A stretch of 64,000 nt of DNA from Octopus vulgaris (lineage: Eukaryota), in assembly GCA_951406725.2 (NCBI GenBank), contig OX597821.1, positions 78,678,001 through 78,742,000 on the forward strand, written 5' to 3'. The notes beneath the pieces are model-generated. The model worked only from the letters and a program-made list of their open reading frames with translations, was not told the DNA's origin and did no database searches. The position numbers were made by a program, and so were the translations under genes. Positions within the stretch are counted from its first letter, which is position 1; every line of letters begins with the position of its first letter. Shown here piece after piece: positions 6,016-60,300 of this stretch.

Positions 6016-6064
<49 letters not shown>

Positions 6065-8145: not shown

Positions 8146-8409
8146 CATAAAAGCCGAGGCTGAAATGATTGTAGGTCTGCTTGCTTAGAGCTGAACTGGT
8201 GCTAAATAATAAGATATGATTTCCCTAAATTACTGTAAATTTTATATTCTATGTAATAAGTAACAAACACGAAAAGATATATTCTCAATGATAATAAGAT
8301 AAACAGAACGATTTCATTAAGAGAAACTTGGTGTCGTAAATACAATCGTAAAATTCTCCAACTATGAAAATGTTTATTACATTCATCACTTCTAATATAT
8401 TTGTTACAG

Positions 8410-8513
8410 CGATGGCTTTTTCAGCATCAAAACAAGCGGAGGAATCTACCTACTCCATGGATCGATAGATATTTCCGTTACTTACGAAATTCTCTATCGA
8501 ATGAACATCAATG
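8410..8513 (+). CDS. Penultimate coding exon of paralog A of the secreted PAN-like gene (upstream exons not found in the window)
   Basis: ttgttacAG acceptor, GTaaga donor, 104 bp, phase 2 to 1, open frame DGFFSIKTSGGIYLLHGSIDISVTYEILYRMNIN; flanking introns are homologous to those around exon 50950-51056. Confidence 0.75.
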
Positions 8514-8579
8514 GTAAGAAATATATTTCCATGTTACATAAGCAAAGCATTGCATATTTTTGTCTGTGTATATATAAGT

Positions 8580-8626
<47 letters not shown>

Positions 8627-8883
8627 TGTGTGCATGTATGTGAGTATGTGTGTGCGTGCGTGTCTGCGTATGAACGTATGTATGTTGTTTACACTTCCCA
8701 ATTTTATTAGTATTCTTCTTAAAAGGAGGCAACTAGTTTAAAACAAAGAAAGGTGCTACCGCTGGTTTTTCGATCATATATATATTTATTAGAAATCGAT
8801 CTTTAAGAATAGTCAGCTTACAGATTGTATTGGGTAAAATCCGTGTGTCTCGGTCAGTTTTTTTTAGAATATATTAGCTTCTC

Positions 8884-9200
8884 TCAATTACCACTGCGAC
8901 ATTTACTGACATAACCAAGAGCTCCAGTAATTATTGATATAAATGTGATTCTACAGTCAAGGTAGAGAGATAGCTGTTGCCGTAGCTGCACATAGATATT
9001 CTCCTTCTTGCTGATTTTGCAAGAGATATTTCCATCTTCAGTGCAGTTGACTAACGTCATTGTAACGACTTTTCTTTCACGCCTCAAGTAACTACGTCAG
9101 GTTTGTTATTTTGGGGCTTGGTAGAAGTTTTAAAAGAAATGCTCAACTAATATTGACTAGGGAACCGCAAGTCGATATTTATTAATCATGTCGTGGATTG
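8884..9200 (-). mobile_element. Old R4-like RLE remnant inside the intron of paralog A
   Basis: NKPDVV and ITFISIITGALGYV; counterpart at about 50300-50600 (+). Confidence 0.6.
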
Positions 9201-9726
9201 CGAATTATTTGACAGGTGCAGTTGAGTGATGCCATCCGGTATTTGAACACTGTCTGTACTGTTCAAAATCTATTGTTTTCATCTTTTTCTTGCGATAGTT
9301 TGTCAATATTCTTGTGTATATTTTATGTAAATTTGCAGCTGATATTTTATGTAAATTTGCTAGCTTTGATAACTTTGAAGCGGGTTTTCTTGTTAAACCA
9401 GCTCGGTATACCAAATGTTAATATCAGTGCATGTGTTGTATATGCACTGTTGTATATTATTTCGTTACACACTCTTTGTTTCAGTACATTCGAATATATA
9501 TTTTCATTAATACCTATGTCTGTACACGTTATGTACAAAAGGGAAGCTCGGAGATATGCCGGTGATGCAAAAGTTCGAGAAACGGCATTACCACTTCCAC
9601 TTGTTAAATATCAATATTTATTTTGATCATCTCTGTATCAACGGAAAATGTAATTAAATAAATTTACTTTGCAGTACACTATAGAATCCGGGCATAAATA
9701 TTTCGATCGTGAACAGAATACATATA

Positions 9727-10103
9727 TATTTCTTTATTACCCACAAGGGGCTAAACATACAGGGGTCAAACAAGGACAGACAAAGGGATTAAGTCGATTA
9801 CATCGACTCCAGTGCGAAACTGGTACTTTATTTATCGACCCCGGAAAGATGAAAGGCGGAATTTGAACTCAGAATGTAACACCTATTTCTTTATTACCCA
9901 CAAGAGACTAAACATAGAGGGGACAAACAAAGACAGACATAGGTATTAAGTCGATTACATCGACCCCGATGCGTAACTGGTACATAATTTATCGACCCCC
10001 AAAGGATGAAAGGTAAAGTCGACCTCGGCAGAATTTGAACTCATACGTAATACCGCTAAGCATTTCGCCCGGCGCGCTAACGTGTCTGCCAGCTCGCCGC
10101 CTT
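9727..10103 (-). mobile_element. tRNA-derived SINE: one full copy plus a tandem 5'-truncated copy
   Basis: Minus-strand head aggcggcgagctggcaga..ttag (A-box-like) and gagttcaaatt (B-box-like); 9727-9882 repeats the body and tail of 9884-10103. Confidence 0.85.
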
Positions 10104-10329
10104 AAATAGAAGGCACACATTACTCTTTATCTTTTATTAAACTTTTAATACTTTTGATATATATTTAAAATAATATAAATTAAATTAATTTTATGTATTG
10201 GCTTATGTTTTTCATTGTTTGATTTGCCTAATAGTGGTTTTATCTCTAATTTAATACAATATATATATATATATATTTGTAATTACTGATGTGTTTACAG
10301 TGTTATGTATTTGAGTGGGGATTTAGGAA

Positions 10330-11290
10330 GTATAGACTTTTTCTGTTGGCTTGCTGTATGTTTGTTTCGTGGGAGCTTTCCTTTCTTGTTTCTTGTTACA
10401 TGAGTGTATGTGATGTTGTGTATAGTTTGTGTAATGTGAGTAGTGTTTTCTTTTAATTGGACTTCTAATATATATTGCATTAATTATGTTGTAAGTTATC
10501 AGGGGCTAATTGAATAGGATGTGAATGCGCGCCATAGTTGAAATGTTTCTTGCAAAACAGTGTTGTGCGCCCAAGTATTGTCATTATGCAAAGTTTCATA
10601 TTTTAAATCATACGTAATGCTCTAATTAATACTGATATTCTTTCCACCCTCATGATCCACTCCGGATATATTTGAAATTTAAGGTTTAGTACTTTGATAG
10701 CTTTTCTACTAAGTTATATTTTACTAAGCAATATTTGCTCGAGAATGTGTTGTGATATCTATCAGCGTGCCTTTGTTTCTTTCCCAGTTCTTTATCATTA
10801 TGTTCGTCTTCTTATTACGCTTCGTCTTGTGGTAGTTGTTACTTTGGACAACTTTATTCCCGATTATTGTGGCCAGGTCATTGTAATGTATTGTATTCGG
10901 TACATGCGTGAACGAGGTCTTGTATGAATTCACATCGAAGCGTTGGTATATTGCATAATGTATGTACAATTTAACTCGATCACACCTCTGTGTATTTTGC
11001 GGTTTGGTAAAGACTGGGAAACCGGGGAAAATGTAGTCAATCATTTCATAGTGCCTTTTGCATATCCTATATTTTGTGTCAGGATCCGTTTCAAGATTAT
11101 ATTTCAATACGTGTTTATCTAGGAGTAGTCTTTTCGTTTCTGAGTTTAAGCAGAAAAGAAGAGATTGACACTAGCTGCAGAGTGAGAGACATTCAAAGCC
11201 AAAATAAAGACCATAAAACTATATCGGTTTTTATGAGACATGTCTATTTGCATTTATAACTGAAGAAGTTTCATGGAATCGTTTCTGACT
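10330..11290 (-). mobile_element. Old R4-like zinc-knuckle/RLE remnant in the last intron of paralog A
   Basis: DPDTKYRICKRHYEMIDYIFPGFPV..RCDRV..TLIDITT; homologous to 48690-49600 (+). Confidence 0.7.
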
Positions 11291-11399
11291 CCTTTCCTAT
11301 ATGTATTTTCATTGCATACGTATTTTTCAAACATTTTGTATATAACCACAATCTGAAATTGAACTGTTTTGATAAAAAAAAAACATTCTTTCATTTCAG

Positions 11400-11449
11400 A
11401 TACTGAGGAAAGAGTCGCAGATAGGTTGGATGTCTACGCATATTCATAA
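11400..11449 (+). CDS. Terminal coding exon of paralog A
   Basis: ttctttcatttcAG acceptor, phase 1, (D)TEERVADRLDVYAYS-stop; aligns with [16 protein letters not shown]-stop at 48521-48573. Confidence 0.75.
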
Positions 11450-11626
11450 GAGGTTCTGTATTATTGCTGAAAATATGTATAGTAATACACACATACATAA
11501 ATAGATACATGTATACACGCATTCAAATTTTTATAGATGCATTCATACATTACAAAAAACCATTCGTACGTTCATATATACATACAAACGTGCATACATA
11601 CATACATTTATACATACATAGTACAT

Positions 11627-11678
<52 letters not shown>

Positions 11679-12479
11679 GTATGTATTTATGTATATACAT
11701 ACATACTTTGTAGCAAAGTCGGGCAATTGTGATCAAGAAAATTGATCACAACTACCCGACGAACGGGAACGTGAAACTCTGAGTAGCTCTTTTTTGTGAT
11801 ATTTTTAGATGTTTTTGCAGTTTTAATATTAAAGCATATTACTGTATCTTCGGTATTCCACTACAGTTTTCTTCTCACCTCTTTTCACATTAATGTGTTT
11901 ACTAAGATATATATACATATATGAATATGTGTGTGTGTGCGTTTATGTGCATATGTGTATGTACAAATACAAACACACTCACACATGTATCTTTAACAAA
12001 AATATTATCCACATTGATCTTGAAGTCTCTGGATTCAAAACCATCATCGCACACTGGCACATTTGTGTTTATCTTGGCCTTATATATCTCTGATCAATTA
12101 AAATATTCTGACTAGACGTGATCCTATTGAATGAGGAGTATGTTGTAGGGTCGGTTGCAAAACAAATATATCAAGGAATATTTTTTATATCAAATGTGTT
12201 ATTGTTCACTATACTGTGATGCATGTCGAAATTTGTAATCAAGCGAGTCCTTTTAGTTTATTGGTTTCAGGTTTTGTGCCTGTGTTTCTTCTACTCATAG
12301 AGGTATGTGGTGGGTGAAAGTATTTGTTGCTCAGTGCATGTATCACTAAGGTTCATTTCCATCTTTTTTGAAGGGGACAGGAATTCATGATTTATCTTTT
12401 ACTTTCGGAAATGTGAAAGTTATAGTAAAGAGTTTAGACTATGTTCATTAACGCTTGTCAGTTTTTGAGTGTTCACAAA

Positions 12480-13750
12480 ACAATGTCAGTGTGTAAAACA
12501 GTTTAATTCAGCAGGGTAAAATATACGAGGTTGTAGATTGGTTTAAGACGATCCCAAACAAAAAGAATGCCTTTCCTATAATTTTACACCAAAGATTATT
12601 ACGCATCAATAACAAAACCTAAGCTCAGCATCGCCACAATTACACAAGGACAATAACTACAATAAACGACACAGAAACAAGCAAGGAAATCCCTTCTCTT
12701 CCTCAACAATGCTTTCTCGATGAAGAAAAACTTTAAAGAAACATTTGAGCTAAGTATTGACTGTAAGACGAAGTGACATCGACGGCTTTTACATATTAGC
12801 AAACTTTCAGAGAAAATTCCATTCTCTACAAGGATTACGGTCTATTCCTGCCAAGAAACTACGGCCAACAAAAATGGATAAATTAAGGAAAGGGCTACAT
12901 CAAGTATTCGGAAACCGTAGGCGTGTTCTTTGCAGTAAACACACACAAATTTAGCCATCTTCTCGACGCTACACTTGACTTAGCATCCAATGCATATCAA
13001 CTTAAAAAGATTAAAAGCAAGTTCAATGTCTACGCAGGTAATCCATACACTGCTAAAAGCATTGTTAAAAACATTGTATAGAAGATATCTCCAAGAGACG
13101 TTCGTCTTTATCCTCCATCAAAATAAGAACTCCATATAACGAAGCTCTCAATTACACTGATTGTAAGGTAAAAGTACCATATAAGACCGCACCTATAATA
13201 AATAAAATATCATAAGAATGGAATAAAGGAAAATTATCTTCTTCAGCCTATCCATCATGAAACCATAAGCCATTAGCCATATAATTCTTCAGAATCCTTA
13301 GAATACACTTCTCCTCTGAACAAAAGTATCACACATTGCTTTACAAAAATAGCATTAGAATATTATATTCCACGTCTATTAATTTCGAAAACATTGTAGT
13401 CAATTGCAACCACAAAATTTCTGAAGGTATAACCTAAAATCACACACATAGCAGCAACAATTGAAAATCTCTCCTGTCTTCTGATAAGAAGTGATATTGC
13501 CTATGGCTCAACTGTAGCCATGAACATGCAATGTTCGACACATATAAAGTGTACAGCAGGCCTGTTCAAGATAGGATACAACCAAATTACTATTCGCAAA
13601 TCAAACGAAAAAATATCGGTATTAAACGAAATTATGTGTAAAATAATGATATGCCCAATATCATATTTAGTCATGAATTTCGTAAACAAAACTTTGAAAT
13701 TGTTTCTTCCTGCAATCACATCTTCAAAATAATAAAGCCCTTCAAACCAA
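12480..13750 (+). mobile_element. Highly decayed Penelope-like element remnant
   Basis: LLDATLDL and YSTSINFENIVVNCNHKI resemble Penelope RT C-terminal and linker motifs; inverted counterpart at about 46250-47700. Confidence 0.5.
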
Positions 13751-13868
13751 TAGTTATATTCAACCTTCTAAATATGAAAATATCTTACGTACTTTTCTCT
13801 ACCTATTTAACCACAATCTATAACTGAAGAATGAATCTAGCTTATAAGTTGTTCTAATTTTGCATATG

Positions 13869-13957
<89 letters not shown>

Positions 13958-14157
13958 TATGTGAAATAGAAAGATGAATAATCTTGTAGTAGATTAATCA
14001 AAAGTTTAACCGATACCTTAGTAGCAAAAATCACAGCAGTAAACAGCACGGTTGGAGGTACAACCGTGCGTTGGTGCGGATAATTGAAATTAAAACATTA
14101 TTGGTGAATTGAAGAAATGGAGCTGAACGCAGATTGAACAGAAATCGTTTTATTTCA

Positions 14158-14237
14158 TTCTACACGTGTTTCGAAAGGCACAAATTACCAAAATCCGATT
14201 GAATAATGGGACCATATTGTGTCTTTCTCTTCAGGAA
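14158..14237 (-). ncRNA. Type I hammerhead ribozyme
   Basis: Reverse complement of 14321-14400. Confidence 0.85.
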
Positions 14238-14320
14238 GAAAATAGGTTGGAAAAACAAAAACAGAACAGAGGCCTCCGCCTCTGTTCTGTTTTTGTTTTT
14301 CCAACGGATTTTCTATTTTC

Positions 14321-14400
14321 TTCCTGAAGAGAAAGACACAATATGGTCCCATTATTCAATCGGATTTTGGTAATTTGTGCCTTTCGAAACACGTGTAGAA
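14321..14400 (+). ncRNA. Type I hammerhead ribozyme (palindromic stem III, GUA site)
   Basis: ttc-CTGAAGA-gaaagacacaa..ttgtgcctttc-GAAA-cacgtg-TA-gaa. Confidence 0.85.
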
Positions 14401-14458
14401 TGAAATAAAACGATTTCTGTTCAATCTGCGTTCAGCTCCATTTCTTCAATTCACCAAT

Positions 14459-14490
<32 letters not shown>

Positions 14491-15406
14491 TGCTCTGTAT
14501 TAACATTGCGCATACAATAAATCCTTAAGAAGTTATCTCCCTAAAGCACGAGGTTTACATATTTTGAAGTAGTAACCAAATAACTACTACAACTCAGAAA
14601 GCTGCTCATCTAACATTTACACTTACCTTCATACATTTGTGGGGCTTAAATCTCAAGATAAACAAATTTCAACTCTAACTATACCTTGAACTCTAGTTGA
14701 TACACGTTATCACAGAGTCTTCTATGTTTGACTGTTAACCTCCTCATTATAGTCTCTCTTATTGATGAGTAATAACCTTTGGTGTAAAAACCCATGGAAA
14801 GGGCATAAGCCTCATCTATTCCTCCGTATGTGTGATACTCGAGAGGCAGTACAGAGCTGCTTTTTTGTTTCCGGCGAGAATTTGTCTATGTCTTTAACCA
14901 TGTTCGAAGAGATGACATGTCTGCCGAATAGGTTGTTATTGAATCTGGGTTTGTCCTCTAACAATTGACATGTGGTGAGAAATTAGTTAAACGATTCAAC
15001 TTTACACCTACATTCATCAATTTATACACTTTAAAGCACAGTTTAAACTGTTTTTCTAAAACTTCGCACATCAAATCACAAGACTTACCGGTTTGATTGT
15101 TAATATTAGCGACAACAAGTAAAGAGATATGTTGAACAACTACACTTTACACCTATTTATACCTTTTGCAGAACATTTAAAAGACTACATGACCTCTTCT
15201 TTGATATATTTAAATGAGCACACTTAATTACGAGGAATTAGATGCTAAACTTAAGTCTCATCTATGACATTCACTTTCCGGAAACAAAAGGATAAATGGG
15301 CGATTTATCAAAGTAAAATCGATAACTAAACAAGTCAACATTTTACAAAAGTCAACACAAGTAGTCTACAACTAAACCACATTTACTGACCTACTAATTT
15401 TTTCGC

Positions 15407-15806
15407 CGATAATGAGTGTTTATTTAAAATATCCCGTTAAATAAACACTCATTATCGCTATGGGCTCCGTGTGGGCAGTCATCTAAAAGTTTTTGTGCAT
15501 CTTGATGCTGACATACGTTCCTTGTTTTTTCTGATGAGAAGACGGCATAATGCACCCCTTATTCCTTCGAAATTAGGAATATGCAGCCTTCGAAACATAT
15601 GTCGAAAATAAAGGAATTTTGTTAATTCGTCGTTCAACTCCATTCTTTCATTTATTTGTATTTAAAAAAATACACAAATTTCCACACGATAGCACGTGAT
15701 CTCTGCCCTAGGCATGTAGCTTCAACCGTGTTTTTCTGACGTGAATTTGCTACCCAGGTATCGGTTAACCGAATTATCCATAATAAGATAATTCATTCAA
15801 CTACTC

Positions 15807-15810
<4 letters not shown>
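15407..15810 (+). mobile_element. Solo Penelope-like terminus (same family as 55399-57540) with a short 5' fold-back
   Basis: Near-identical to the reverse complement of 55399-55775; begins with the hairpin cgataatgagtgtttatttaa..ttaaataaacactcattatcg; ends at (TA)n. Confidence 0.88.
15526..15608 (+). ncRNA. Type I hammerhead ribozyme (GUC site)
   Basis: ttttt-CTGATGA-gaagacggcat..atgcagccttc-GAAA-catatg-TC-gaaaa. Confidence 0.85.
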
Positions 15811-15858
<48 letters not shown>

Positions 15859-15859
15859 T

Positions 15860-16094
15860 ATTGTATTTTCTTTTACTTCATTTAACAATTAAACTACAGC
15901 CATGTTGCTGCACTGCCTAGTATAATTTCATATCGATTTTTCGACAAATGTAATTACATTGTTATAATCCTGTCACGTATGGAATTGTTTAATTTTCGGG
16001 GATGTAAACACACCAACATCGGTTATCAAGCGATGGTAGTGAGGGGACAAATCAGACATATATATGCACAAACACAAACTCACACACACACACG

Positions 16095-16154
<60 letters not shown>

Positions 16155-16290
16155 ACGGGTTCTATTCAGTTTCCGTCTACCAATCCCACTCATAATAATT
16201 TAGTTGGTCAGATTAGTTGCCCAAGGACGAGTGGGACAGAACTTCATGCCATGTGTTTTGGAAGCATGCTTCTTGCAACACAACCACACC
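15860..16290 (-). mobile_element. Decayed bipartite SINE with an internal (CA)/(TA) microsatellite
   Basis: Reverse-complement homology to both halves of 17167-17580. Confidence 0.6.
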
Positions 16291-16444
16291 TACACTTCGG
16301 ATAATCTACTCACTCTATTTACAAATATAGGTGTGCGTCTTATTCCTGACGTTTGGACATTAATACAACTTACGTATATGAATGTATATATTCATGCATA
16401 TATACATACCTACATACATACACACACACACATATATATATGAT

Positions 16445-16865
16445 TTTTTTTCAGAATGAGATAAAGAAACCAAGGCTGTGAAGATTTTAAGACATTTATA
16501 AATATGACTTACAGATGTTGCCAGGATATTTATTATATCCCTTCATCGGAGACGGCGTGAGAGAATAGTTAAGCAATATATAATTTAGATAAGATACGAA
16601 ATAGAGAGTGAAATGGAGGAATGAAAATGGATGTTTGATATGCAGGGATATTCCATTTGTAGATCCATTATTTAATCAGAATCGTATACATATAGGATTC
16701 GAATACCTTGTGAGTAAATTCCAATAGTATTTAAAATTGATCATTGTAAATTCCAATAGTATGAAGGGATATAATAAATATCCTGGAAATAGCTGTAAGA
16801 CCTTCTATTTATAAATGTTCTAAGATCTTCACAGCCTTGGTCTTTTTATCTCATTCTGAAAGAAG
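16445..16865. mobile_element. Penelope-like remnant with ~105-bp inverted arms carrying decayed hammerheads
   Basis: 16445-16546 is the reverse complement of about 16761-16865; right arm reads ATGAagggatat..atatcctgGAAAtagctgTA; related to 51685-51795. Confidence 0.7.
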
Positions 16866-17166
16866 CATTTTTTATATATACACATACTGATATATGACCT
16901 ACGTTGGACTCCTTATTCGCGTAATCACAGAACCTGGAGCTTAATTATGGGCTATCCATAGTAATTATTCAGCATTAGCTGACACATTTGTATCTTATAG
17001 ACACCATTACCTCGCATGACCTCTCTCTCTCTCTCTCTCTCTATTTCCGTCTCTCTCTCTCTCTTTCTTTCTCTTTCTCTCCCTATATATATATATATAT
17101 ATATATTTTATATATATATATACACATATATATATATAGGCTGTGGCTGTATGGTAACTAGCTATA

Positions 17167-17309
17167 GGCGCAGGCGTGGCTGTGTGGTAGTAGCTTGCTT
17201 ACCAACCACATGGTTCCGAGTACCATGGGCAAGATTCTTCTACAATATCCTTGGGCCGACCAAGGCCGTGAGAGTGGATTTAGTAGACCGAAACTGAAAG
17301 AAGCCCGTC

Positions 17310-17358
<49 letters not shown>

Positions 17359-17580
17359 CATGTGTATATATGTTTGTGTGTCTGCGTTTGACCCCCACCA
17401 TCGTTTGACAACCGAAGCTGGCGTGTTTACTTAACGGTTCGCCAAAGAGAGTGATTGAATAAGTACTAGGCTTACAAAGAATAAGTCCTGGGGTCGATTT
17501 GCTAGACTAAATGCGGTGCTCCTGGCATGGCCACAGTCAAATGACTAAAACAAATAAAACAATAAAAGAATAAAAGAATA
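17167..17580 (+). mobile_element. tRNA-derived bipartite SINE with an internal (TA)n
   Basis: Head aggcgcaggcgtggctgtgtggt..ggttc; 5' half recurs inverted at 18737-18875 and 16154-16290; tail gcatggccacagtcaaatgac recurs inverted at about 17610-17640. Confidence 0.75.
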
Positions 17581-17886
17581 TATATATATTTATATATTTA
17601 TCTATATTTTGTTTCAGTAATTTGACTATGGCCATGTGGAGCACTAACGTTTGATGAGCAAATCGATCCCAGGACAATTCTATGTAAGCCTAGTACGTAT
17701 TATATCGCTGTCTTGTGTCGAACAGCTAAGTTGCGAGAAGTAGGAAGTAGGTGATTGGGAGTACAAAACGGACACAAAAACATTCACAAACACGCACACA
17801 CAAACACACAACCACACAGAGACACAGACACACAGACACACACAAACACATACATATATACTCATTTATATATATATATATATATA

Positions 17887-18713
17887 CAACAATTGAGGGT
17901 AAAATTAATTAATTATTAATCAATTTCACCAAGTGTTCAGTATGCAAAGGGACCATTTAAGGCGAATTCAAATTATTACATTATATAAAAGGGCTTAGTA
18001 AAATAAATTACTTTGCCGCATACTGAACTCATTAGAAATAGCAGCTAAAAAACTTTTTTAAAGCTATTTCTAATACTTAAAGAAAATCTCTCTCATATAG
18101 TGTTTGCTTAATTCAACTCACAAAAGTTTGGGGGTAAGGACATCAAAAAATCAAATGCTAAGGTTATTTGAGAACGTACGTTTCAAGATTAGTCAAAACG
18201 ACACTTCTATCATCAGCTCAGAAACTCCTTGGTTTGGATTTGGAAACACTGAAAGTAAGAACATACCCTTTCGGCTTCTCATCGCTTTCGAAGATCTGCT
18301 CGTAACTAACAGTGCCAACAAACTCAAATAAGCAAGCGAAGAATTTCTGTTCTCCCCTTTCCACCAGCGTGGGTTAAAATCATCAAACACTATGCTTATT
18401 TCGGTAAAATCCGAAGCATTAATTAGAGGGAGATTAATTATAATTTCAACAATTGAGGGTAAAATTAATTAATTATTAATCAATTTCACCAAGTGTTCAG
18501 TATGCAAAGGGACCATTTAAGGCGAATTCAAATTATTACATTATATAAAAGGGCTTAGTAAAATAAATTACTTTGCCGCATACTGAACTCATTAGAAATA
18601 GCAGCTAAAAAACTTTTTTAAAGCTATTTCTAATACTTAAAGAAAATCTCTCTCATATAGTGTTTGCTTAATTCAACTCACAAAAGTTTGGGGGTAAGGA
18701 CATCAAAAAATCA
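17887..18713 (-). mobile_element. Non-coding 560-bp-period partial tandem with a hammerhead (retrozyme-like), inserted in (TA)n
   Basis: 17887-18153 is identical by eye to 18447-18713 (267 bp); hammerhead in the single-copy part; TA runs on both sides. Confidence 0.75.
18169..18220 (-). ncRNA. Type I hammerhead ribozyme (GUU site, palindromic stem III)
   Basis: Minus strand tgag-CTGATGA-tagaagtgtcgttttgactaatctt-GAAA-cgtacg-TT-ctca; stem II is imperfect. Confidence 0.75.
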
Positions 18714-18736
18714 TATATATATATATATATATATAT

Positions 18737-18875
18737 ACGACGGGGGTTCTTTCAGTTTCCGTCTCCCGAATCCGGTCTCAAGGATTTGGTCCGCCTGAGG
18801 CTACGGTAGAAGATACTTGCCGGAACGATGTGGAAGGTAAACCAGCCACTTACCACACAGCAACTCCTGCGCCTA
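18737..18875 (-). mobile_element. SINE 5' half (family of 17167-17580)
   Basis: Reverse-complement homology to 17167-17310. Confidence 0.75.
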
Positions 18876-18918
18876 TATATCCGTACATACATATATACAT
18901 ACATACATGCATACATAC

Positions 18919-18972
<54 letters not shown>

Positions 18973-19015
18973 TGTGTGTGTATGTATCACACGAAGACAC
19001 ACACACACGAACGCA

Positions 19016-19100
<85 letters not shown>

Positions 19101-21859
19101 TTTGCATTCCTGAAATTTTAAACCTTTTCAGCTGAGACATTTATTTCAACGAAATTTCTAAGCCCCTTCACTGTTATAGCCCCTGATTTCAATGCACTTA
19201 TGGCGATGAAGCTATTTCGTGGAGATCCTATGGGTCCTCTAATGCTCAAGTATCTAGAGCCCTTGTCACAGCACCTTTCAATTTACATCTCTAAACCGGA
19301 AGCTCCCGTTGTTTTTGATGTCCTTTGGTCATTGCACTCTTAAAGTAATTCCAGCTTTCCTAATGGTCAGATTCTCTTGGATTGGATATAATGACCAAAA
19401 CCATCTCCCAGGTGCCAAAAAAGCTTCATTCCTTTTCTTTGCTCCTGAACATTCTGGGAATAATCTTTGTATAAATTTGCTCCTGGGAGATCTTCACTCA
19501 AACGTCTACGACAGTTATCCCACCAATTCCAACCTGTATGCTTAGGCACACAACGGTTTTCATCCATCTCCTCCCACACCTCTCATCGCTTTTCACATCT
19601 CTTCTACCGTCCTTGACCCTTTTGCCGCAACCATATACTTACACGATATAATCCATAAACAATCCGAAGCGTTTTTACTCAATTTCACGGAGAATTTACA
19701 TCCTACTAGCTACTCAGCTGTTTAAAATAGTGTGTATTAGGGTGCTTTCAAATTCCTGCTACATCCTAAGTTTGGAATATAAATAAATAAAATTGGCGGG
19801 ACCGCTTGTCAGATCCCTTGTATTACTATAATTAATTAACAATAATCTTAGCAGTTATAACTATCTCCCTTAAAACAAAGTCACGAAGTTTCTGGAATAT
19901 ATCACTTACATTACTTTTTGGAACATTGGATATCGAACACATAAATGAATCCGGGCATTCACTGGCAGACTTCGATATCTGCTCTCCCAAAGTTGTTTTT
20001 CTTGCTTTTGTTTATCATGCCCCTTTTGTTGCACGTATTCTACACCATATTTGGCACTACTTTACTGGTTCTGAGACGAAATATTTTCATAAATGGTAAA
20101 ATATCTATATATAAAGATAATAATTTAGTGAGATGGAAGAGCCATTTAAATCGACTTTAGAATTCTATTAGCACTTGTTAGTTCTATAGATTCCATTTCT
20201 CTTGACAGTAGGTGATGTATAAAGTCAAGGCGTTCAGTGACCACCTCACGTACTGCACTTCACAAAAACCCCTACTTCTAAGAAGTATCCCATATGTCAA
20301 TTCTTACTATTGGTGACTATATTATTCCACCATTTTTAAACTTTATTCCTCTCATTTGCATAGTTTCAAATTTTGGCGCAAGTTCAGCAATTTGGGGGAA
20401 GGTATTAAATCGATTATATCGACTGATACTTAAGTAATCGATCGCGAAATGATGAAAGGCAAGGTGGACCTCAGCAGATTTAGAACGTATAAACTTACGA
20501 AATGCAACGAAGTATTTGGTCGCTGCCATGTCATCGCCTTATTTGTTTGATAATTGTTTAATTTTTTTTTTGGTCATCCATAAGAACATTAAGAACACCT
20601 TTCGATACCTCGCACTCTTATATACCGTAATTACATTTGACTTGCTAAACAAAATACACACCTTATGACAGTGATCTTTTTGTTCCTTATCTGCATTCGA
20701 ATCTCATTTAGCTTTCAATATTATAATAAATACAGAAATTATAAATGAAGCTCTATTTCCATGGTAATTCACACGCTCTGTTTTACATTCTCTATTTAAA
20801 TGCTTATTATTTCGACGTCGTAACATTACTAACTTCAATAGCGCCAGCATTTCTTACATGCTGGCTGTATTTTTTTAATTCTCATCTACTATTTCATGGT
20901 TGTATATTTTTCAATATACGCGTGCATGCGCAGATGCACGTTATTTGTTTTAAGTTTATTTTTCTATTACAGGTTTAAGTATATATGTTTTAAATATTTG
21001 CGAACTTAAGTGAATTCTCTGATGTGTTAAAGGCATTTTATAAAAACTCTTTAAAATTATGTTTTCATCTAACTGACTTGACGCTTATTTCAATATCTTG
21101 AATATTCTATAGCGTTTTCTGATCCATTGAAATGTATTCTTTTGCACAAATAAAAATCTTATTGAACGATATTTGTTTTGGGAGTTAATATTGGCATTTA
21201 TATTACAAAACTCGTAATGGTGGCATCAGCTTTGACTTGTTGAATTTCTGTATGTTTTCGACATTCACTCTGGATTCGTAATTTTCATAAACATTCTTGA
21301 AACATGAAATTAAACAGGACAGTCTCGGTGGCAACGCATTTTACATGAATTCTTCTCAAGGCCAATCTGCGGCTACACAACAACATTTAAATGAAATTCA
21401 ATTTTGGCGATCAACCTTCTACTATATATTATATATATATATGACACATGACAAAATCCCCTCCAGTCACCTAACGATAACAAATTCTTATCTCCACTAT
21501 TTTGTGTATTGCTCAACAAACCTATACATGTATAGTGGTAGAAAGCAATCAGCATAGAGAGAGAGAGAGATAGCGAGAAAGAGAGAGATAGAGAAAAAGA
21601 GAGAGAGAGATAAAGAAAGAGAGGGTTTAGATATAAAAGAAATCGTGCTGAACCCCGACATTGTTGTTTATCCCGCAGCTTTGCAATATGTTACAGTCGA
21701 CACATTATATCATTGTTTTGATGAAAATTTGCTTCAAAAAATATTGGTCAAGTTTAATAGAATCTAATATGTACTCAATGCATGAAATGTCCCAATGAAG
21801 CGCCCTCGACAGGAGTTAGCTGAGAAGCCGCTAGATAGGGAGGCGTTTTATCTAGTATA

Positions 21860-26875: not shown

Positions 26876-27571
<696 letters not shown>

Positions 27572-28695: not shown

Positions 28696-28696
<1 letters not shown>
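27572..28696 (+). mobile_element. Young 5'-truncated R4/Dong-like LINE, copy 1 (zinc knuckle plus RLE, frame open to stop 28522)
   Basis: CRFC..ETVDHLISGC, RHD, PD..D..K-type RLE (KPDIVVKD..LIDMSIP..KLTKY); 3' UTR then (TAA)n. Confidence 0.95.
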
Positions 28697-31714
<3,018 letters not shown>

Positions 31715-41910: not shown

Positions 41911-43844
41911 TTGTATAATTTTTAAAATTTTATGACGTATCAAGGGCCACTGCCCGCCCATGAAGGGTTAATTATGTAACAAAGTAAAGGAAAAACAACA
42001 TTTAAGCATAAAATAAAAAGGCGGAGCGTGTGAATAACAGTGGAAACTGAGCTTTATTAAAAATGTGTGTATTCATTATAATATTGAAAGTTAAATAAGA
42101 TTCGAATGCAGATAAATAACAAAATAACAGTCATAAAATGTCATATCCTTTAGCATGTCAAAAGTAAGTGAAATATATATGAGTGAGAGGTGTCAAAATG
42201 TGTACTTAGCTTTCCAAAGCGTGACGATATGAAAAATTAAACCGTATCATATCAGTTGAATAAGGCGGCGGCGTGGAAGAACCGTTAGGAAAGTGGACAA
42301 TATGCTTGACGGCATTTGGTAAACTGACACTCTAGCATACTAGAGTCGAATTAACTGGCAGTTCCTTCTCAGCAAAGTATCTTATGTATATGTAGATATT
42401 CGTCCAAAATATTTATTCTCAGAACCAGTGAAGTAGAGCCATAGATCGTGTAGAATACGTGCATCAATAGGGTTATAAAACATATTCCGGAGAGAAAATG
42501 TCGAAAACTGCCAGTGGATGCCGGGCCTCTTTTTTTACTCGTCATTCAATGTTCCAGGAAAGAATGTATTAACTGTATTCCAGAAATGTTCAGGCTTTGT
42601 TTCAGGAGAGATAATTTTAACTGTCTAGATTATTGCAATGTAAGTATATCAATACTAGACATCTTACAAGCTGACCATTAATGGTTAGTGATTTTTATAA
42701 CAGACTATAAGATGCAGCTGTAATAATACTTTGAACTCAACCTACCATGATCTACTTGAGACAGTTGAGTAGTTTCCAGGATGCACTCGAGTCGTGAAGA
42801 CCATTCAGAAGTTTGCTTATGCAATAAAAGTTTTTGTGTTAAACTGGGCAAAACGTCTTCAGGTTGCATATAGATTATCTTGTGTGAGCTGACCAAGAAT
42901 TTATCTCTGGGACGAGAGAGTCAATGTCGGTAGATGGACAGTGAAAGATGATGAGTGGTGTTGGGTTATATAGACGTTGAAACATGAGAGCGGGTTGAAA
43001 AAGTTCGTAATTTTCTGGATAAGCCCGTCATGTGTCTATGCAAACAGAATGGAGTTGGTTTGGTAATTGTACACAGTATTATGCATCGAGGTCTGTACTT
43101 GCGCAAACATTCTAACTAGAATACACATTGACGAAAAGAAAGGAACGGAAGTTTGGTGGCAGCAAGGAGATGGTTTAGATAATTATTTTCACAAAAGTGT
43201 ACTTGTCTATGAGGAATGCGAGAACAACTATTATGATGCAAAGACCAATGAACAGGAAACCGAACTGAAGCATCCTACATCCTACAGAACTACTAGCCAT
43301 AGAAACTACACCGAATACCTCTTGAAGATCCTTTTTTTGTCGACAAGAATATAGATTACTATCAGTGGATTCTCATTGGCCAGGTGGTCAACAAAGAGTC
43401 TTTTATCGAGGTTTTGAATGGTTTGAGGAATAGAATATTTCCAAATGTCATGAGCTACCACACTAGTATCGGTGGCACGTACAGCTGAACAATGCATTTG
43501 TCCAAAATTCCATCTCTGTAACCATCTACTTGACAGATAAGGATATCAAATCTTTGTCTCACCTTCTTCACTTCCTAGATGTTGCTCTTTGTGACATTGG
43601 TTGTTCTCCAGGCGGAGGGAGAACAAATGGGGCAACAATTTTCAAGACATTTAAAAGATGAAAGTGTACAGTGGTCAGTGGATTCTAAGTTGTAGTAGTT
43701 TAAAAATCGCTTAGAAATTAATATCAAATCTGAAAATGTCTCAATACTTCTGGAATGCAATCTGCGTGTGTGTGTATTTGTGTGTGTGCATCTGTGTATG
43801 AGTGAGTGCTTAGACACATACACACAACACAAAAGCACACACAC

Positions 43845-43902
<58 letters not shown>

Positions 43903-44234
43903 TATAGAGTATGGTTGATGGTTATATACACACACACACATATGACTCTCATTCTATATTTACATATATATGTACATATATATATATCCAAATAAGCAAC
44001 AAGAATAACTTCCAAATTACCGAAGTTATTCTTGTTGCTTATTTTGATTATAATCATCCCATGGATTTATATGGATAACACCATACAAAATTCTGGTTCA
44101 TCTAAATTAAGTACCATATTCATTTGAATCTAAATTTTGCTGATATATGTATATATATATATATTTATTTATATATATATACATATATATATATATACGG
44201 ATAAATATAGATATAGATATATGCACATACATAT

Positions 44235-44460
44235 AGAGGTGCAATGGCCTAGTGGTTAGGGCAGCGGACTCGCGGTCGCAGGATCGCGGTTTCGATTCTC
44301 AGACCGGGCGTTGTGTGTGTTTATTGAGCGAAAACACCTAAAAAGCTCTACGAGGCTCCGGCAGGGGGTGGTGATCCCTGCTGTACTCTTTCACCACAAT
44401 GGCGGTGCCCCAGCATGGCCACAGCTCAAGAGCTGAAACTGGAAAAACAAAAACAAAACA
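44235..44460 (+). mobile_element. tRNA-derived SINE with a tail borrowed from another SINE family
   Basis: A-box tggcctagtgg, B-box-like ggtttcgattc; head as in 21860-22167; tail ggcggtgccccagcatggccacag as at about 17513-17540. Confidence 0.85.
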
Positions 44461-46249
44461 AATATATATATATATATATATATAAGCATAAATTAAGTCA
44501 TACATATATGTATATACGCACATTCACCCAAATTCTCTTATATGCAGATGCGTATATATGCCTGTTTTGATATTAAATTATAAAGAAAACAAATTTTTAT
44601 TAAAGTAAAATATTGCTAGACACTCTTTGCAGTCAGTATTCTTTCTACAGTACTCCTTATTCATTAACAAGTGTATTGACAGAGAGTTCGATGCTCCAGT
44701 CTGCTAAATCTTCAATGGATTTTGGCACATTTTATTTACTCTCAGCATATACAGTCTCTGATGAGTTAAAATGTTCCGAGTACGTGAGTTTCTGTCTACT
44801 GAGAATTATATTGTAGAGATGGTTGCAATGAAAAGGCGTCATGGAAGATTGTTGTTGACGAAATCTGGAGTTGTGTTATTGTTCACTATTAAGTCACACA
44901 CGAGAAATTCGTAATCGGGTGTTTCTATTTATTTGCATCAGTTTCAGGTCATTTTCTTTTTTCGGGATTCATATAAGGATATTAGTGGTTGAAATGATTA
45001 GTAGGTCTATATGTGTGGATTAGTTGTTGACTACATTGAATTGTTATCGAATTTAATTGGTCAGTAAAGGATGATAAATCACAGGGTTATCCTTTTGCTT
45101 TCGGAATATGAACGTTATATTTGGAAGTCCAGTCTAGCAATTTAATTCACATAATTGGGTTAGTTCATTTAGGTGTATCAGAATGTAGGTCACACAGTGT
45201 TTTAAATGTCTCTTTGCTTTTTGTTTGTGACACCTAGATATAACTAGTTACTTTTGGAAAGGTATAGGTTAACAATCAAGCAGGTAAGACCGTGCTTATG
45301 TATGTGAAATTTATATCATCATATTGTTTGCATGGAAATTCCTTTACCTTATTCTTGAAAGTGCACAAAAGGATGAATGTTCGTGTAAATTTCAGTCGCT
45401 TAACTTAATTAGTCGCATGTGTTAATTGTTAAAGTATAAACCCAGTTTCAATAGCAACCGATTCGGCAAACGTATAATGTTTTCGAACCTGAACAAAGAC
45501 ATAAGTGAAAAAACACCACGGACAAATTCTCGCAGAAAGTAGAGAAGCAAAGTGGAAAATTCTTCTCGGGTATATTTCATACGGAATAAAAGCTTAGTTT
45601 AAGAAGATCTCAAAAGAAAAAGAATCGAATGCCTTTTCCTTACGTTTTTACACCAAAGGTTATAAAGTATCAATAACTGAAACTATAATGTGGAGGTTAG
45701 CAGTCAAACATGTAAGACTCTAAGATAAGGTGTGTCAACTTAGTTTCTGGTATGCTATGCAGATAGGTGTAAAATTTAGATGATCAGCTGATTTCTAATT
45801 GGGTTGTAGTTGTTATTTGATTACTACCTAAAAACATGTAACGTTCGTGTGTTAGGGAGATAAATTCTATGGGTTCTTTTTACATAAATATTTTTCTCTT
45901 CATGTTTAAATGCCTGTATTTTATAAACAAAAACTATTAGGCACCTATGGATATACACGAATGTGGGACATTTTAAACACGTGCAATATATAATATATAT
46001 ATATTAAAAATGTATATAAGTTTATATATATAATCTTATATATACAAGCTTATATATATACATAAGTTTATATATATAAGCTTATAAAAATATGTATAAG
46101 GTTAAATTCTCGTCTTCCTTAGATATATTTCCCGTCTTCCTTGGATGTATGTATACGTGTGAATCTATGTGTGTGCACTTATATTTAAAATTATTTTAGT
46201 TTGACGGGTTTTAGTAATTTGAAGATGTGTTTACGAGAAGAAACAAATT

Positions 46250-47700
46250 CAGAGTTTTGTTTTTGGTTGTCATTCGTAAGTATGAGAACGGGCAAGATCC
46301 ATTCGTGTAACATTGGCAATGATTGCTTTAACGTTAGTATCATAATGTGTATTACAATATTTTATCCACAATGCTAAACGTCATAAAATTTCTTTCAAAT
46401 CCCATATATTTGGATAGGAAGATACGATTTTCTCCGTTTGGGTTGTGAATATTATAGTGATTGTAGCATATCTTGAACAGGTTTGATCTCGACCCTATAT
46501 ATGTCGATGTAGTAGTTTGCTGTATGTTCATGGTTACTGATGGCAATAGAGAATATCACTAGTAAAATCGTTTACTTTTAGAAGGTATGACAGAGTCGTC
46601 CTGTGGTTGCACTATTTGCTGGTATGCTGTGGTTTTGGCTTTCACTGTCGGAAAATTTAAGGTGATTGCAATTGGCTACAGTGTTTTTGAAATTATCATT
46701 CGTGGAATATAATATTTTTACGTTGTGTTTGTTAATCAATTTGTATTACTTGTGATCGGGGTGAAAGTATTTTCCGTGTATTCTGCGAAACAATATGGTG
46801 TTGTGTTGTACTTTTCCCTTATAATCACTGTTATTCAGTGCCTTGTTACATAGAGTAGCTATTTTGATGGATGATAAAGAAGAAACGCTCAGAGATATGT
46901 TTATACTAGGCTTTAAATATACTTTTGGAATGATCGGATTCCATTCGTATATACTGGATTTCTGCATTTTTTAGAGTTTATATATACTGGATTCTAAGTG
47001 AAGGTGTGGATTAAATTTATCCAGTTTTGGTGGGCTGGAATATCTTCGTACGAGTTAACCGTTGTCCCTGTAGTTGTTACGAATGGAAATTTGCAGCATA
47101 AATTTGCTATTATACGAAATCTGATAATATCACTTCGCTTTTCACTCCCTGCTTAGGTTAAATGGGACATTCGGGATGTTTCTTAATGCAGAAAATACTG
47201 TTGCCGAATGTAAGTGATGTCCTGATTTGTAATATTCTTTCTGTTTTGGGGTCGCTTATTGTAGTTATTGTCTTTGTATGTTTGTTGCAACCATAAGCAT
47301 AGATATTATTATTGATATGTAAAATTCTTTGGTGTTAAAATGTACGAAAATGCATTCCTTTTGTTTTCGGATTGTATTAAATCAAACTATAACCTAAGAT
47401 GGGCTTTACTAGCAGGACAATTCAGAGTTTACTTTTGTGTTTGATGAGAATATGTTTTGTATCAATTTTGTCCCCTAATGAAGTTTATCTCCGTGTTCGA
47501 CAGTTTTATAACTGGCGGAGATGTTGCTTTAGAAAAAAGGGTTTATCGTCTAACAATTAATGCATGGAGGAGAAATCTGCGAAACCATTGTTCTTTACAA
47601 CTACCTTCAACTTTTTTTAACTTGAAAGTACACATTAAACAAATTTCTATCCTACACGTGCTACAACCTAAATTTGATACAAAAGAAACAGGTAAAATCT
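46250..47700 (-). mobile_element. Decayed Penelope-like remnant, inverted-duplication partner of 12480-13750
   Basis: 46665-46720 reverse complement (atattatattccacgaatgataatttcaaaaacactgtagccaattgcaa) matches 13360-13409. Confidence 0.55.
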
Positions 47701-48278
47701 CCTAACTATCAGGAGCATGTAGTAGGATAATCTGCTGAATTAAACTCTTTACCTACTTACATTGTTTGGTGAACACTTAACATCTAAATGATCTACAAGC
47801 TGACTGACCTAAATGAACGTAGACTGAACAAAAGCTTAAATCATTCATTAGTGTCCAAATAAAATTTTAAAATCTACACGTAATGACACATTGCTGACCT
47901 ACTAATCTTGTCATTGAACAGCATTCATCCATGACTCCCTAAAATACAGGACCCAGTCCTTAATCTAATAAAACTAAAGGCGCATCTTATTAAATATTTG
48001 TACATGCTTCACGGAATTGTGAACAATATCACAACTCCAATTCTTTACAATAAATATCTCCATTGAAACCTTCCTGTTACAACCGACCCTACAACAAAAT
48101 TCTCAGTCAAAAGGACATCCACCCATTCAGAAAATTTTAACATCACAGAGTCTATAGAAGACCAAGATAACTCAAATGTACCATAGTCCAGTGACCACTT
48201 AGCATCCCAAGATTTCGAAATGATTGTCAATAATATTCTTGTTGAAGATCTAGATATAAATAAATAAATAAAGAAAGA

Positions 48279-48359
<81 letters not shown>

Positions 48360-48412
48360 CATCCGTTTATTGTTTACAGACATGTCTTTGTCTTTTGTAT
48401 TTTTGTAAATTC

Positions 48413-48460
<48 letters not shown>

Positions 48461-48520
48461 GCATGCAAATATGCATGTATGTATTTATTACCGCACATAA
48501 TTTCAGTAATAATATAAAAC

Positions 48521-48573
48521 CTATTCTAATAATACGTAGACATCCAAACCATCTAGGGGTGTTCGATAAGATG
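48521..48573 (-). CDS. Gene B coding exon 5 (terminal)
   Basis: ttttatttcAG acceptor, phase 1, (T)[19 protein letters not shown]. Confidence 0.78.
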
Positions 48574-48689
48574 CTGAAATAAAAGAAAATTTGTTATAAA
48601 TCAATTGAAATTCGGAATGACGCTATATTCTAAATGTTCGAAAAATACATATAAAATGACGAAAACACATATGTGAAGTCAGAAACGAC

Positions 48690-49600
48690 TTAATGAAACA
48701 TTTTTCAGTTGTGAGTATAAAGAAACACGCATGCCTTTTTATACAAATGTATAGTTTTAGCTTCATTATTTTCGTTTTGTATGTCTGTCATTATGCATCT
48801 AGGGTCGATCGCTTCTTTTTGCTTAAAAACCGATACGAAAGGATTCACTCTAATGACACAAACAACTATAGAAATATAATCTTGAAAACAGATCCTAACA
48901 CAAAATGCAGGATATGCAACCAGCACAAGTAGACAGATGGGGGAAACATCTGTAGTTGCCCAGTTTTTAGCAAATCTGAATATATATCTGAATATATAAT
49001 CGGGTTAATTGTTACTTTTATTGAGCAATATACTAATGTTTCTGTGTGACTGCAGACAAGATATGGTTCACACATATACCGAACACAGCAAATGATAAAG
49101 ACCTGGCCACAATAATCTAGCGATTTACACAGATCTCCTTCAATACGAAGCCCTCAGACATAATAATAATAAAGGGCTGGGGAACAAAGAAGTACATTGA
49201 TATATATCAGAACGTCTGAGGAAAATATTGCCCTAAAGGTAGTACTGTCAAATGCAAATAAATGAACGTTGAAATATAGACGATGTGGAGCATGAGGGTG
49301 GATACATTACCAGTATTGTTTAGAGAATTAGAACCGCTTCAAAATATGAAATGCTACATAATTCCAGGACCTGGGTTAACAACCCTATACACTGGTCTGC
49401 TCAATTTCACAACATATACAATAAGTCCCTAATAACTTAAAATAACATAATTCATGCAACATATACTATAAGATGAAGGCCCAATAAAATTACATTTCTC
49501 ACATTACTCAAACGATACACAACAGCACCTACACCTGTGTAACAAGAAACGAGAAACGAACAGGCAACACGCCAACATATAAATCTATACTTCCTACATC
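48690..49600 (+). mobile_element. Old R4-like remnant in the last intron of gene B (partner of 10330-11290)
   Basis: TNNYRNIILKTDPNTKCRICNQHK; collinear homology to the paralog A intron. Confidence 0.7.
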
Positions 49601-50949
49601 CTTTCACAAGAACACAGCATAGCAAACAATTTATGAATTATATTTAATATGTAAATTTACATACATACAAACATACATACATACATACATACATACATAC
49701 ATACATGCATGCATACATACATGCATACATACATACATACATACATACATACATACATACATACATACATACATACATACATGCATACATAGGCATACAT
49801 ACGTTATATGCAAACAGACTTATATTTTCTGTTTACGATCCTCAGATCTATGCCCGGATTCTATAGTTACCGAAAAGTAGCTTAATGTAATCCCATCTTC
49901 CGTTGATACAAACATGAAGATTGATCGAAATAACTATTTATATTTAACGAGTCAACGTATTAAAACCGCTCCGCCAATTTTTGTCTTACTGGCCTCTCTC
50001 TCTGAGCTTCCCTATTGGCAAAACAATTACTTAAATCCCGACGTAGCTATTGATGAAAAGTATATGATGAAGAAATAATGAAAACAAAGTGAGTGTAATC
50101 AAATAAACCTAAAAAGATATGTATCATTTACAGGTTTTCTTTTACATTAAGGCAGTATCCCACAATGCATTTACAGCACCTGAGATCAGCATCTAATTCC
50201 CATTAATCAAAATTTAGAAATATATACAGCCTCTATCGCAGGACAAAAAGATGACTTCACTCAAATGGCACAAGTCAAATAGTTGGCAATCAACCACAAG
50301 ATTGAAAATCAAGAGAATATCAACTCGCTGTTCCCTAGCGAATACTGGTTGAGCATTTCTTATAAAAAATTTTAGCAAGCACCAAAATAAAAAAAAAACT
50401 GACGCGGTTATTTGAAACATGAAAGTCGTATACAATGACGTTAGTCATCTACCCGGAAAATGGAAATATATCTTGCAACATCATCAAGAAAATGAATGTC
50501 TAGATACCACTGCGGATCCATCAGCCGCTTTACCCTTCATTGGTGCACTTGTTTTTGTGAGTATATGTCACAGGGAAAATCTGGGAAAGCTAAGATTTTC
50601 AAGCTAAAGAAACAGACAAGCTAACATGAACTTTACCAGATATAATTTTTAAATGGGACTTTTCTTCAAGAACGATTTGTAATACCTATGATTATTGTCC
50701 AAAATCCACTGATAGCGCCTTTCTTTGTTTAAATTCAGTTGCCTCATTTTACGAAGAATACTTATATGAAGTATACAAAACATACACACATGCATACTTT
50801 GGTACACACGTACGCACACACACACAAAAACACAAACACACACAAACACAAACACACACACGCACGCACATATAACGACGGACTTATTTACAGACACAAA
50901 TATATTGAATGATTTGCATATACATAAACGAAATATATATATTACTTAC

Positions 50950-51056
50950 TAATTTTGTTCATTTTGAAACCGATATCGTAATATGTTTCATTCACCTTTT
51001 CTACAGACAGCATGCATTGGTCTCCATCTTTCACCTCGATTATAAAATATTTTTCA
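50950..51056 (-). CDS. Gene B coding exon 4
   Basis: attcatttcAG acceptor, GTAAGT donor, 107 bp, phase 2 to 1, EKYFIIEVKDGDQCMLSVEKVNETYYDIGFKMNKI. Confidence 0.78.
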
Positions 51057-51684
51057 CTGAAATGAATATATCGTAACCTATGAATTCAATAAACGTCATC
51101 ATAGTTGGAGAATTTTAATATTGTATTTACGACACCCAGTTCCGTTTGGTGAAATATTTCAGTTTATCTTTTAATCATTGAGATGATTATATCATTTCCC
51201 CTTTCATATTTATTATATAGAATATATGTCCTACTTGTTTCTCTAAATTGTTATTATTTATTGGTAAATATATAGTCATAATGGTAAAAGTACATTTGTT
51301 AAAAATAGTTTTGTCGCTAGTAACATGATTATTGCTTCCTGCATATTTTGAAACTTTGTATTGTAAATATTTCTATCCTTAAATGTAATTAATTCTATTC
51401 TTAATTATAATTGTTTTTATGCTTAAAAAGTAGAGTTGCATTATTTTTCATGTTCTCTAAGTAAATGAGGAATCAATAATTATTTCTGTATCTGCTACTT
51501 TCAATGCTTACTTTTTATGCTCTACCTACCTATCTATCTGCCTGCCTGCCTGTCTGTCTATCTGTCTATTTATTTATGTATCTAATAATACACACACACA
51601 CACACACAAAGACACACATATATATATATACATACATACATACATACATACGTATATATGTACGTGTGTGCGTTTGTATTTGAA

Positions 51685-54632: not shown

Positions 54633-54784
54633 CTTAAATTGAAAATGTACGATGTTGATAAATTTCGATACCACGGTTCTGAAAGGAGGTTCATCTCACT
54701 GAACCACGCTGTAGAATTTTTATTTCTTCCGTTGAATATTAAATAGTGAAATATATGACCACGTTTTACGAACGAGATTCTCAC
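54633..54784 (-). CDS. Gene B coding exon 3
   Basis: ttgtatttgcAG acceptor, ag/GTatat donor, 152 bp, phase 0 to 2, VRISFVKRGHIFHYLIFNGRNKNSTAWFSEMNLLSEPWYRNLSTSYIFNL. Confidence 0.82.
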
Positions 54785-60208: not shown

Positions 60209-60300
60209 CTTTTCAATCGGCCAATTATTCCAGAAAGCATAAAGAGCATTTCTTTTAAACGAAGATGTAGTTATCTGAAATATTTTCTGCCAGGTTCTGC
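60209..60300 (-). CDS. Gene B coding exon 2
   Basis: actcatgcAG acceptor, aag/GTAATA donor, 92 bp, phase 1 to 0, RTWQKIFQITTSSFKRNALYAFWNNWPIEK. Confidence 0.82.

Follow-up and report, generated by a model that had tools for sequence, protein, structure and literature searches.

The coding exons of two paralogous genes, here called A and B, have diverged far beyond the non-coding DNA that surrounds them in a 64-kb stretch of the Octopus vulgaris genome (the window, meaning the whole stretch that was analysed). Exons 4 and 5 together were identical at 77 of 147 nucleotides (~52%), compared with 74.5% for the non-coding DNA of the same duplication. Diversifying selection following one old inverted duplication, and acting on a predicted secreted binding protein, probably explains this contrast.

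The window was compared with itself by blastn. An inverted duplication was identified in which 8243-20802 on the forward strand is colinear with 51226-41999 on the reverse strand, so that genes A and B are arranged tail to tail. The features are listed below. P0001 and P0031 are the Octopus bimaculoides proteins of LOC106876624 and LOC106876625 respectively, and P0002 is an O. vulgaris protein record.

8243..20802, forward strand: copy A of the inverted duplication, comprising the 3' end of intron 3, exon 4, intron 4, exon 5 and ~9 kb of 3' flank, with insertions between (11 colinear blastn pieces, later realigned)
8243..8409, forward strand: 3' end of gene A intron 3, including 8287-8388 (131/167 identical to 51226-51057)
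8410..8513, forward strand: predicted gene A exon 4, 104 nt, phase 2 to phase 1 (AG/GT sites; 20/34 residues identical to P0031)
8514..11399, forward strand: gene A intron 4 (74.5% identity with gene B intron 4 over 1903 columns)
11400..11449, forward strand: coding part of gene A exon 5, including the stop codon (12/16 residues identical to P0031)
41999..51226, reverse strand: copy B of the inverted duplication (blastn self-comparison, realigned)
48521..48573, reverse strand: coding part of gene B exon 5, including the stop codon (16/16 residues identical to P0002; 12/17 to P0001)
50950..51056, reverse strand: gene B exon 4, 107 nt, paralogue of 8410-8513 (43/44 residues of a stretch identical to P0002; 22/35 to P0001)
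54633..54784, reverse strand: gene B exon 3 (29/51 residues identical to P0001)
60209..60300, reverse strand: gene B exon 2 (22/31 residues identical to P0001)
62163..62484, reverse strand: first coding exon of gene B, with a predicted signal peptide and a PAN/apple domain (81/106 residues identical to P0001; Pfam PAN_1 E 0.004, under the curated cut-off; PAN fold Z 9.5 in the P0001 model)

Gene B is complete. Its five exons (62484-62163, 60300-60209, 54784-54633, 51056-50950 and 48573-48521) join into a single open frame of 241 residues. Exons 1-3 of gene A are absent from the 64-kb window, and gene A is therefore only putatively intact in O. vulgaris; the A/B homology ends at 8243, adjoining retroelement-like debris. 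No gene A protein record from O. vulgaris turned up among the protein matches collected. RefSeq lists two isoforms of LOC106876625 that diverge close to the exon 3/4 junction, a hint of transcript support for the orthologue of gene A. Reads were mapped to gene B (49810-55140). Run X1, an RNA run by our guess, yielded no contig over gene B exons 3-4; contigs register presence only, and this result is uninformative either way. P0002 matches the last two exons of gene B and is a partial model that retains exons 4-5 only. Public gene models of this octopus PAN-domain family are often incomplete or joined to first exons of unrelated origin, as seen in P0002 and in several Octopus sinensis records. 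The conserved intron piece of ~100 nt upstream of exon 4 was considered as a hidden exon and rejected: the matching frame hits a stop in both copies, and homologous proteins map elsewhere, save for read-through of the partial model P0002.

The original prediction was that this intron piece differed at about 18 positions between the copies while the adjacent exon shared only about 8 of 34 residues. Positions 8287-8388 and 51179-51078 were identical at 82/102 positions without gaps, giving 20 differences. Codon alignment of exon 4 gave 8/34 identical residues and 48/102 identical nucleotides; with free DNA gaps, 55/100 positions matched between 8410-8513 and 51056-50950. The frames, phases and splice sites said to be kept were intact in both exon 4 copies, each having AG and GTAAG sites, starting in phase 2, ending in phase 1 and differing in length by one codon (104 and 107 nt). 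The downstream introns also align as described, with approximately two thirds of intron 4 alignable (1903/2886 nt), a microsatellite being masked and a SINE-like insertion left unaligned.

A non-coding baseline was built from the 11 colinear pieces minus the exons and two microsatellite tracts. Identity was 3491/4684 (74.5%), corresponding to an HKY distance of 0.318, which is a lower bound because the pieces were selected by blastn. By region, identity was 78.4% in the intron 3 flank, 74.5% in intron 4 and 74.3% in the 3' flank past the stop codon, and all 42 non-overlapping 100-column non-coding windows fell at 65-83%. The similarity of the ~100-nt piece is thus real, but it lies at the top of the ordinary range for the duplication and marks no special element. 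Exon 4 was simulated at the non-coding rate in 20,000 runs, and the lowest identity reached was 58/102, compared with the observed 48/102. The excess of change in exon 4 was borne out but is not confined to it: codon-aligned exon 5 was identical at 29/45 nucleotides and 5/15 residues, and at the protein level the excess extends to the whole gene.

Three public DNA runs (X2-X4) each contained a contig that fits both flanks of gene B exon 4 while skipping the exon, as well as contigs carrying copy A letters at 4/4 checked sites. The presence of both kinds of contig argues that the exon/intron contrast is not an assembly artefact, with the qualification that one run may be the source of the window. 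Read depth at 51056-51233 corresponded to approximately two low-copy loci, compared with hundreds to thousands in nearby repeats, and the intron similarity is accordingly not that of a repeat. Within 51118-51149, X2, X3 and X4 each had two contigs carrying copy A letters at 51118, 51119 and 51148; they represent either a pair of A alleles or a third close paralogue lying beyond the window. A 31-base insertion at 50536/50537 in gene B intron 4 was present in all three DNA runs and missing from the window.

Selection was assessed from the A/B pair, in which only 49 codons of exons 4 and 5 are comparable; other paralogues were compared as proteins only. With dS fixed at 0.318, exons 4 and 5 together gave a dN of 1.0 and a ratio of 3.2 (p 8e-10), and the result held for exon 4 alone (p 1.4e-8) and exon 5 alone (p 0.008). 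With dN/dS left free, the ratio for both exons was 1.5-1.7 and did not differ significantly from 1 (p 0.26-0.37). Exon 5 alone was significant, with about 15.5 nonsynonymous and 0.5 synonymous differences (p 0.003 against dN=dS) and a dS near 0. For this pair, the excess of coding over non-coding divergence is supported; the classical test did not establish a dN/dS above 1 for exons 4 and 5 together. For exon 4 alone the free dN/dS was 0.64-0.79 with a dS of 1.2-1.5, which exceeds the non-coding distance under a one-ratio model (p 0.004-0.009). Under two-class site models, a dS equal to the non-coding distance was not rejected in any of six fits (p 0.08-0.41).

The reading frame is constrained, since open frames of this kind are rarely retained without selection: unselected change at exon-level divergence left no stop in 4% of 4000 simulations, and at the non-coding indel rate the probability of no frameshift in the exons was 0.08. 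The A/B replacements showed no bias towards conservative changes relative to random ones (mean BLOSUM -0.83, against a simulated median of -0.92). A single weak hint in favour of diversifying selection at gene B came from one contig of run X2 with 7 differences in 755 bases. The four that were listed are all replacements in exon 3 (Fisher p 0.033, assuming that the three unlisted differences fall outside the exon). This replacement-rich allele was absent from X4 at the 3 sites covered and from X3 (depth 3) at 4/4 sites, where the letters of the window were found.

Orthologues were identified for both genes in O. bimaculoides. Gene B corresponds to LOC106876624 (P0001; 166/240 residues, 69%) and gene A, over exons 4-5, to LOC106876625 (P0031; 32/50 residues, 64%). 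As each copy has a separate orthologue, both are probably older than the split of O. vulgaris and O. bimaculoides, which is dated at ~34 My in the portion of PMC10700109 available. In a tree of 18 sequences, A and P0031 formed a pair (support 100), and the other paralogues fell apart from the A and B clades (99). This full-length tree includes 16 relatives; the tree of exons 4 and 5 alone was poorly resolved. P0001 and P0031 were 40% identical over their whole length and 47, 43, 33, 39 and 18% identical in exons 1 to 5, so that divergence is gene-wide. As read from the alignment of gene B with P0031, the first 28 residues were more conserved (18/28) than the rest (77/210).

A multi-member octopus family was recovered by collecting paralogues, as the original prediction had anticipated. 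In O. bimaculoides it counts at least 12 named loci, and a single 97.8-Mb record carries 8 of these. When P0001 was searched against 1.84 billion representatives, 30 matches were returned: 27 octopus, 1 bivalve, 1 amphioxus and 1 that was not looked up. Other orthologue pairs between the family members and O. bimaculoides were 75-80% identical, which puts A and B among the fastest of a family that evolves fast as a whole. Two other members differ hardly at all between O. vulgaris and O. sinensis (identical at 139/140 and 195/198 residues), and rapid change is therefore not ongoing in every member. Variant architectures were seen in P0005 (O. sinensis) and P0026/P0042 (O. bimaculoides), one variant carrying the C-terminal domain twice, the other having that domain interrupted by a long Lys/Cys/Gly-rich repeat. 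Database names for the family were 'uncharacterized' or 'Apple domain-containing' only. The family was not found in the literature searched by topic, LOC/XP and UniProt identifiers, although supplements and subscription papers may mention it. PAN, apple and lectin were all absent by word search from the main text of a cephalopod venom preprint (10.64898/2026.04.09.716377).

Gene conversion offers another route to exons that look older than their introns: non-coding DNA could have been homogenised while the exons escaped, or exon 4 could have been replaced from a distant paralogue. The one-ratio dS of exon 4, which is well above the non-coding 0.32, would fit such a mosaic, as would the clustering of the O. 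bimaculoides loci and the slightly greater identity of the flanks nearest exon 4 (78%) relative to the average. Against this, identity is even across about 12 kb, including 9 kb beyond the stop codon, and dS in exon 5 is near 0. The non-coding distance of 0.32 also exceeds the ~0.11-0.16 expected between O. vulgaris and O. bimaculoides by rough arithmetic (34 My, PMC10700109; 2.4e-9 per generation, PMC7656900, both as given in the parts available; generations of 1-1.5 years), indicating no homogenisation since the species split. The A and B clades are mutually closest in the full-length tree, with no closer exon 4 donor for A among the 16 relatives. The A/B similarity is thus too even and too old to resemble a recent conversion tract, and a mosaic of this kind is improbable.

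Exon-specific hypermutation or segment switching, with selection merely keeping the frame open, would raise silent and replacement change in exon 4 alike. Such a process has been proposed for snake toxin genes, and the same pattern is described there in venom genes (PMC7285919, in the part available). Exon 4 conforms to it in showing differences at 12 first, 22 second and 20 third positions among 34 codons and in having a dS approximately equal to dN. The predominance of replacement over silent differences in exon 5 runs counter to it. In addition, when site-heterogeneous selection was simulated with a true dS of 0.318, an apparent dS of at least 1.23 arose in 47/300 runs, so the high value in exon 4 can be produced by selection. 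We consider hypermutation or switching quite improbable.

Least likely of all is that relaxed constraint let the exons diverge at close to the neutral rate, with the alignable non-coding DNA forming a conserved or selected subset. In its favour, the baseline was indeed chosen by blastn, the divergence of the orthologous proteins (64-69% identity) is about at, or slightly above, the rough neutral expectation, and most octopus genes with high dN/dS are read as relaxed selection and noise by the authors of PMC13174406 in the part available. Against it, some two thirds of intron 4 can be aligned, with an identity equal to that of the 3' flank, both species retain the frames and splice sites, and relaxation is unable to lift dN to three times the neutral rate.

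The protein was examined through predicted structures. The AlphaFold model of P0001 (mean pLDDT 85.7) comprises an N-terminal helix, a PAN/apple domain and then a beta-rich domain of ~135 residues. The helix is hydrophobic and probably acts as a signal peptide, in which case the protein would be secreted. Residues 32-105 of the model matched 4a5t with a Z of 9.5 (rmsd 1.6, 66 aligned), and the top 10 rows (Z 8.2-9.5) all fell on this part. By sequence the domain is less distinct: gene B exon 1 scored 17.4 bits against Pfam PAN_1 (curated cut-off 21.4), and only one of 11 relatives, P0039, passed the curated cut-off of PAN_1/PAN_4. The expectation of a multi-member family of PAN-domain proteins is supported, with secretion as a prediction. 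Exon 4 does not lie within the PAN domain. In the P0001 model it encodes three beta strands of the C-terminal domain, and exon 5 encodes a loop and the last strand.

A domain-only model of the paralogue P0017 (pLDDT 92.8) matched H-ficolin at Z 5.2 (rmsd 4.1, 110 aligned), ANGPTL3 at 5.0 and fibrinogen at 4.8, tied with TLDc at 4.7. Foldseek gave no match at E 0.001 for the full or domain-only models. Pfam Fibrinogen_C did not match P0001 (E up to 1) or any of 11 relatives (E up to 0.1), and a sequence search of the PDB returned only weak PAN matches for the family profile and coiled-coil noise for P0030. In the Atlas, the octopus C-terminal domain matched unnamed clusters of mollusc and cnidarian proteins at TM 0.80-0.82, and an intelectin cluster at 0.51. 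The domain of the bivalve protein P0030 scored 0.92-0.94 to clusters named fibrinogen-like, whose Pfam share is 0-15%. A conserved disulfide loop in the ligand-binding subdomain is a feature of fibrinogen-related domain proteins; no such loop was seen in the octopus C-terminal domain, which has no conserved cysteine in the octopus alignments. No immunoglobulin domain was present: the N-terminal helix together with the PAN and C-terminal domains takes up the whole of the 241-242 residues of these proteins. As a lead only, the fold of the C-terminal domain appears to lean towards fibrinogen-related lectins; the domain may work like one, although it is not filed as one here.

In the reading that we favour, diversifying selection after an inverted duplication, one gene would have been duplicated in inverted orientation in a single event predating the O. 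vulgaris/O. bimaculoides split. The non-coding DNA of the copies would then have drifted to 75% identity while positive selection pushed the coding exons much further apart. More tentatively, exons 4-5 might form a variable binding surface; they encode three beta strands and a loop close to the end of the C-terminal domain. By analogy only, the protein may quite possibly help to recognise foreign surfaces during immune or mucosal defence; a function in saliva or venom is unlikely, some other function equally so, and one in reproduction would be more unlikely still. A clustered family of at least 12 loci, with proteins changing ~3x faster than introns in the tested pair, points to an arms race, and makes the family a concrete candidate for a part in recognising pathogens, in salivary activity or in recognising mates in cephalopods.

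Several mobile elements and other features were also recorded in the window. Three tandem non-LTR retroelement 3' ends (27570-28746, 28981-30159 and 31713-32697, with 4899-6063) are 96-98% identical with a weak zf-RVT match, and each follows a long (TAA)n array that reaches 1.6 kb at most; we take these to be akin to Dong/R4-type elements, which target TAA repeats. An open frame of 329 residues (56270-57259, reverse strand) had no Pfam match at E 0.01, and its end presumably resembles the GIY-YIG endonuclease of Penelope-like elements. At 38097-39762 (forward strand) lies the remnant of a GC-rich (49%) LINE that matches endonuclease and reverse transcriptase. Mariner/Tc1-like transposase remnants occur at 23441-24301 (Transposase_1 match at 23827-24150), with similar pieces near 41460-41967 and 61116-61933. 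Positions 17879-18156 and 18439-18716 form a direct duplication of 278 bases, 98.6% identical.

Exons outrunning introns are a known signature; the octopus family itself is uncharacterised. [quoted passage not shown] As in those genes, introns and flanks are more conserved than exons, the signal-peptide region is relatively conserved, KA is close to or above KS and the paralogues are clustered. The octopus protein family is unrelated to the venom proteins, however, and a venom-gland or toxic role would be an analogy only. The non-coding identity of the octopus pair (75%) is also lower than the 89-98% quoted for the untranslated regions of venom genes in the same source, which makes the octopus duplication look older.

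A further close parallel is with the molluscan FReDs/FREPs, which include PAN/apple and fibrinogen-domain forms in the snail Biomphalaria and the limpet Lottia (PMC7588048, in the part available). The octopus proteins likewise pair a PAN domain with one that gave its best structural matches to H-ficolin, ANGPTL3 and fibrinogen, and they belong to a clustered, diversified family. They differ in having no Pfam Fibrinogen_C match, no immunoglobulin domain and no conserved cysteines in a C-terminal domain that is ~135 residues long, compared with ~210 for fibrinogen-related domains. They also resemble an unnamed mollusc, cnidarian and amphioxus domain (P0030, Sinanodonta; P0015, Branchiostoma), with core homology at an hhalign probability of 97.8 over 62 columns and a TM of 0.80-0.82 over 132-135 residues. 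That domain is often fused to PAN, and its Atlas clusters are named 'Apple domain-containing' and 'Fibrinogen C-terminal domain-containing'. Unlike P0030 and P0015, the expanded octopus members are without the cysteine-containing C-terminal part, and exon 4 lies within this reshaped region. It is conceivable, if doubtful, that octopuses hold a repertoire of secreted recognition proteins combining PAN with a cut-down fibrinogen-like lectin domain without the disulfide loop, venom-like accelerated exon evolution and replacement-rich alleles; such a repertoire would be a counterpart of the snail FREPs or a set of new salivary or reproductive effectors.
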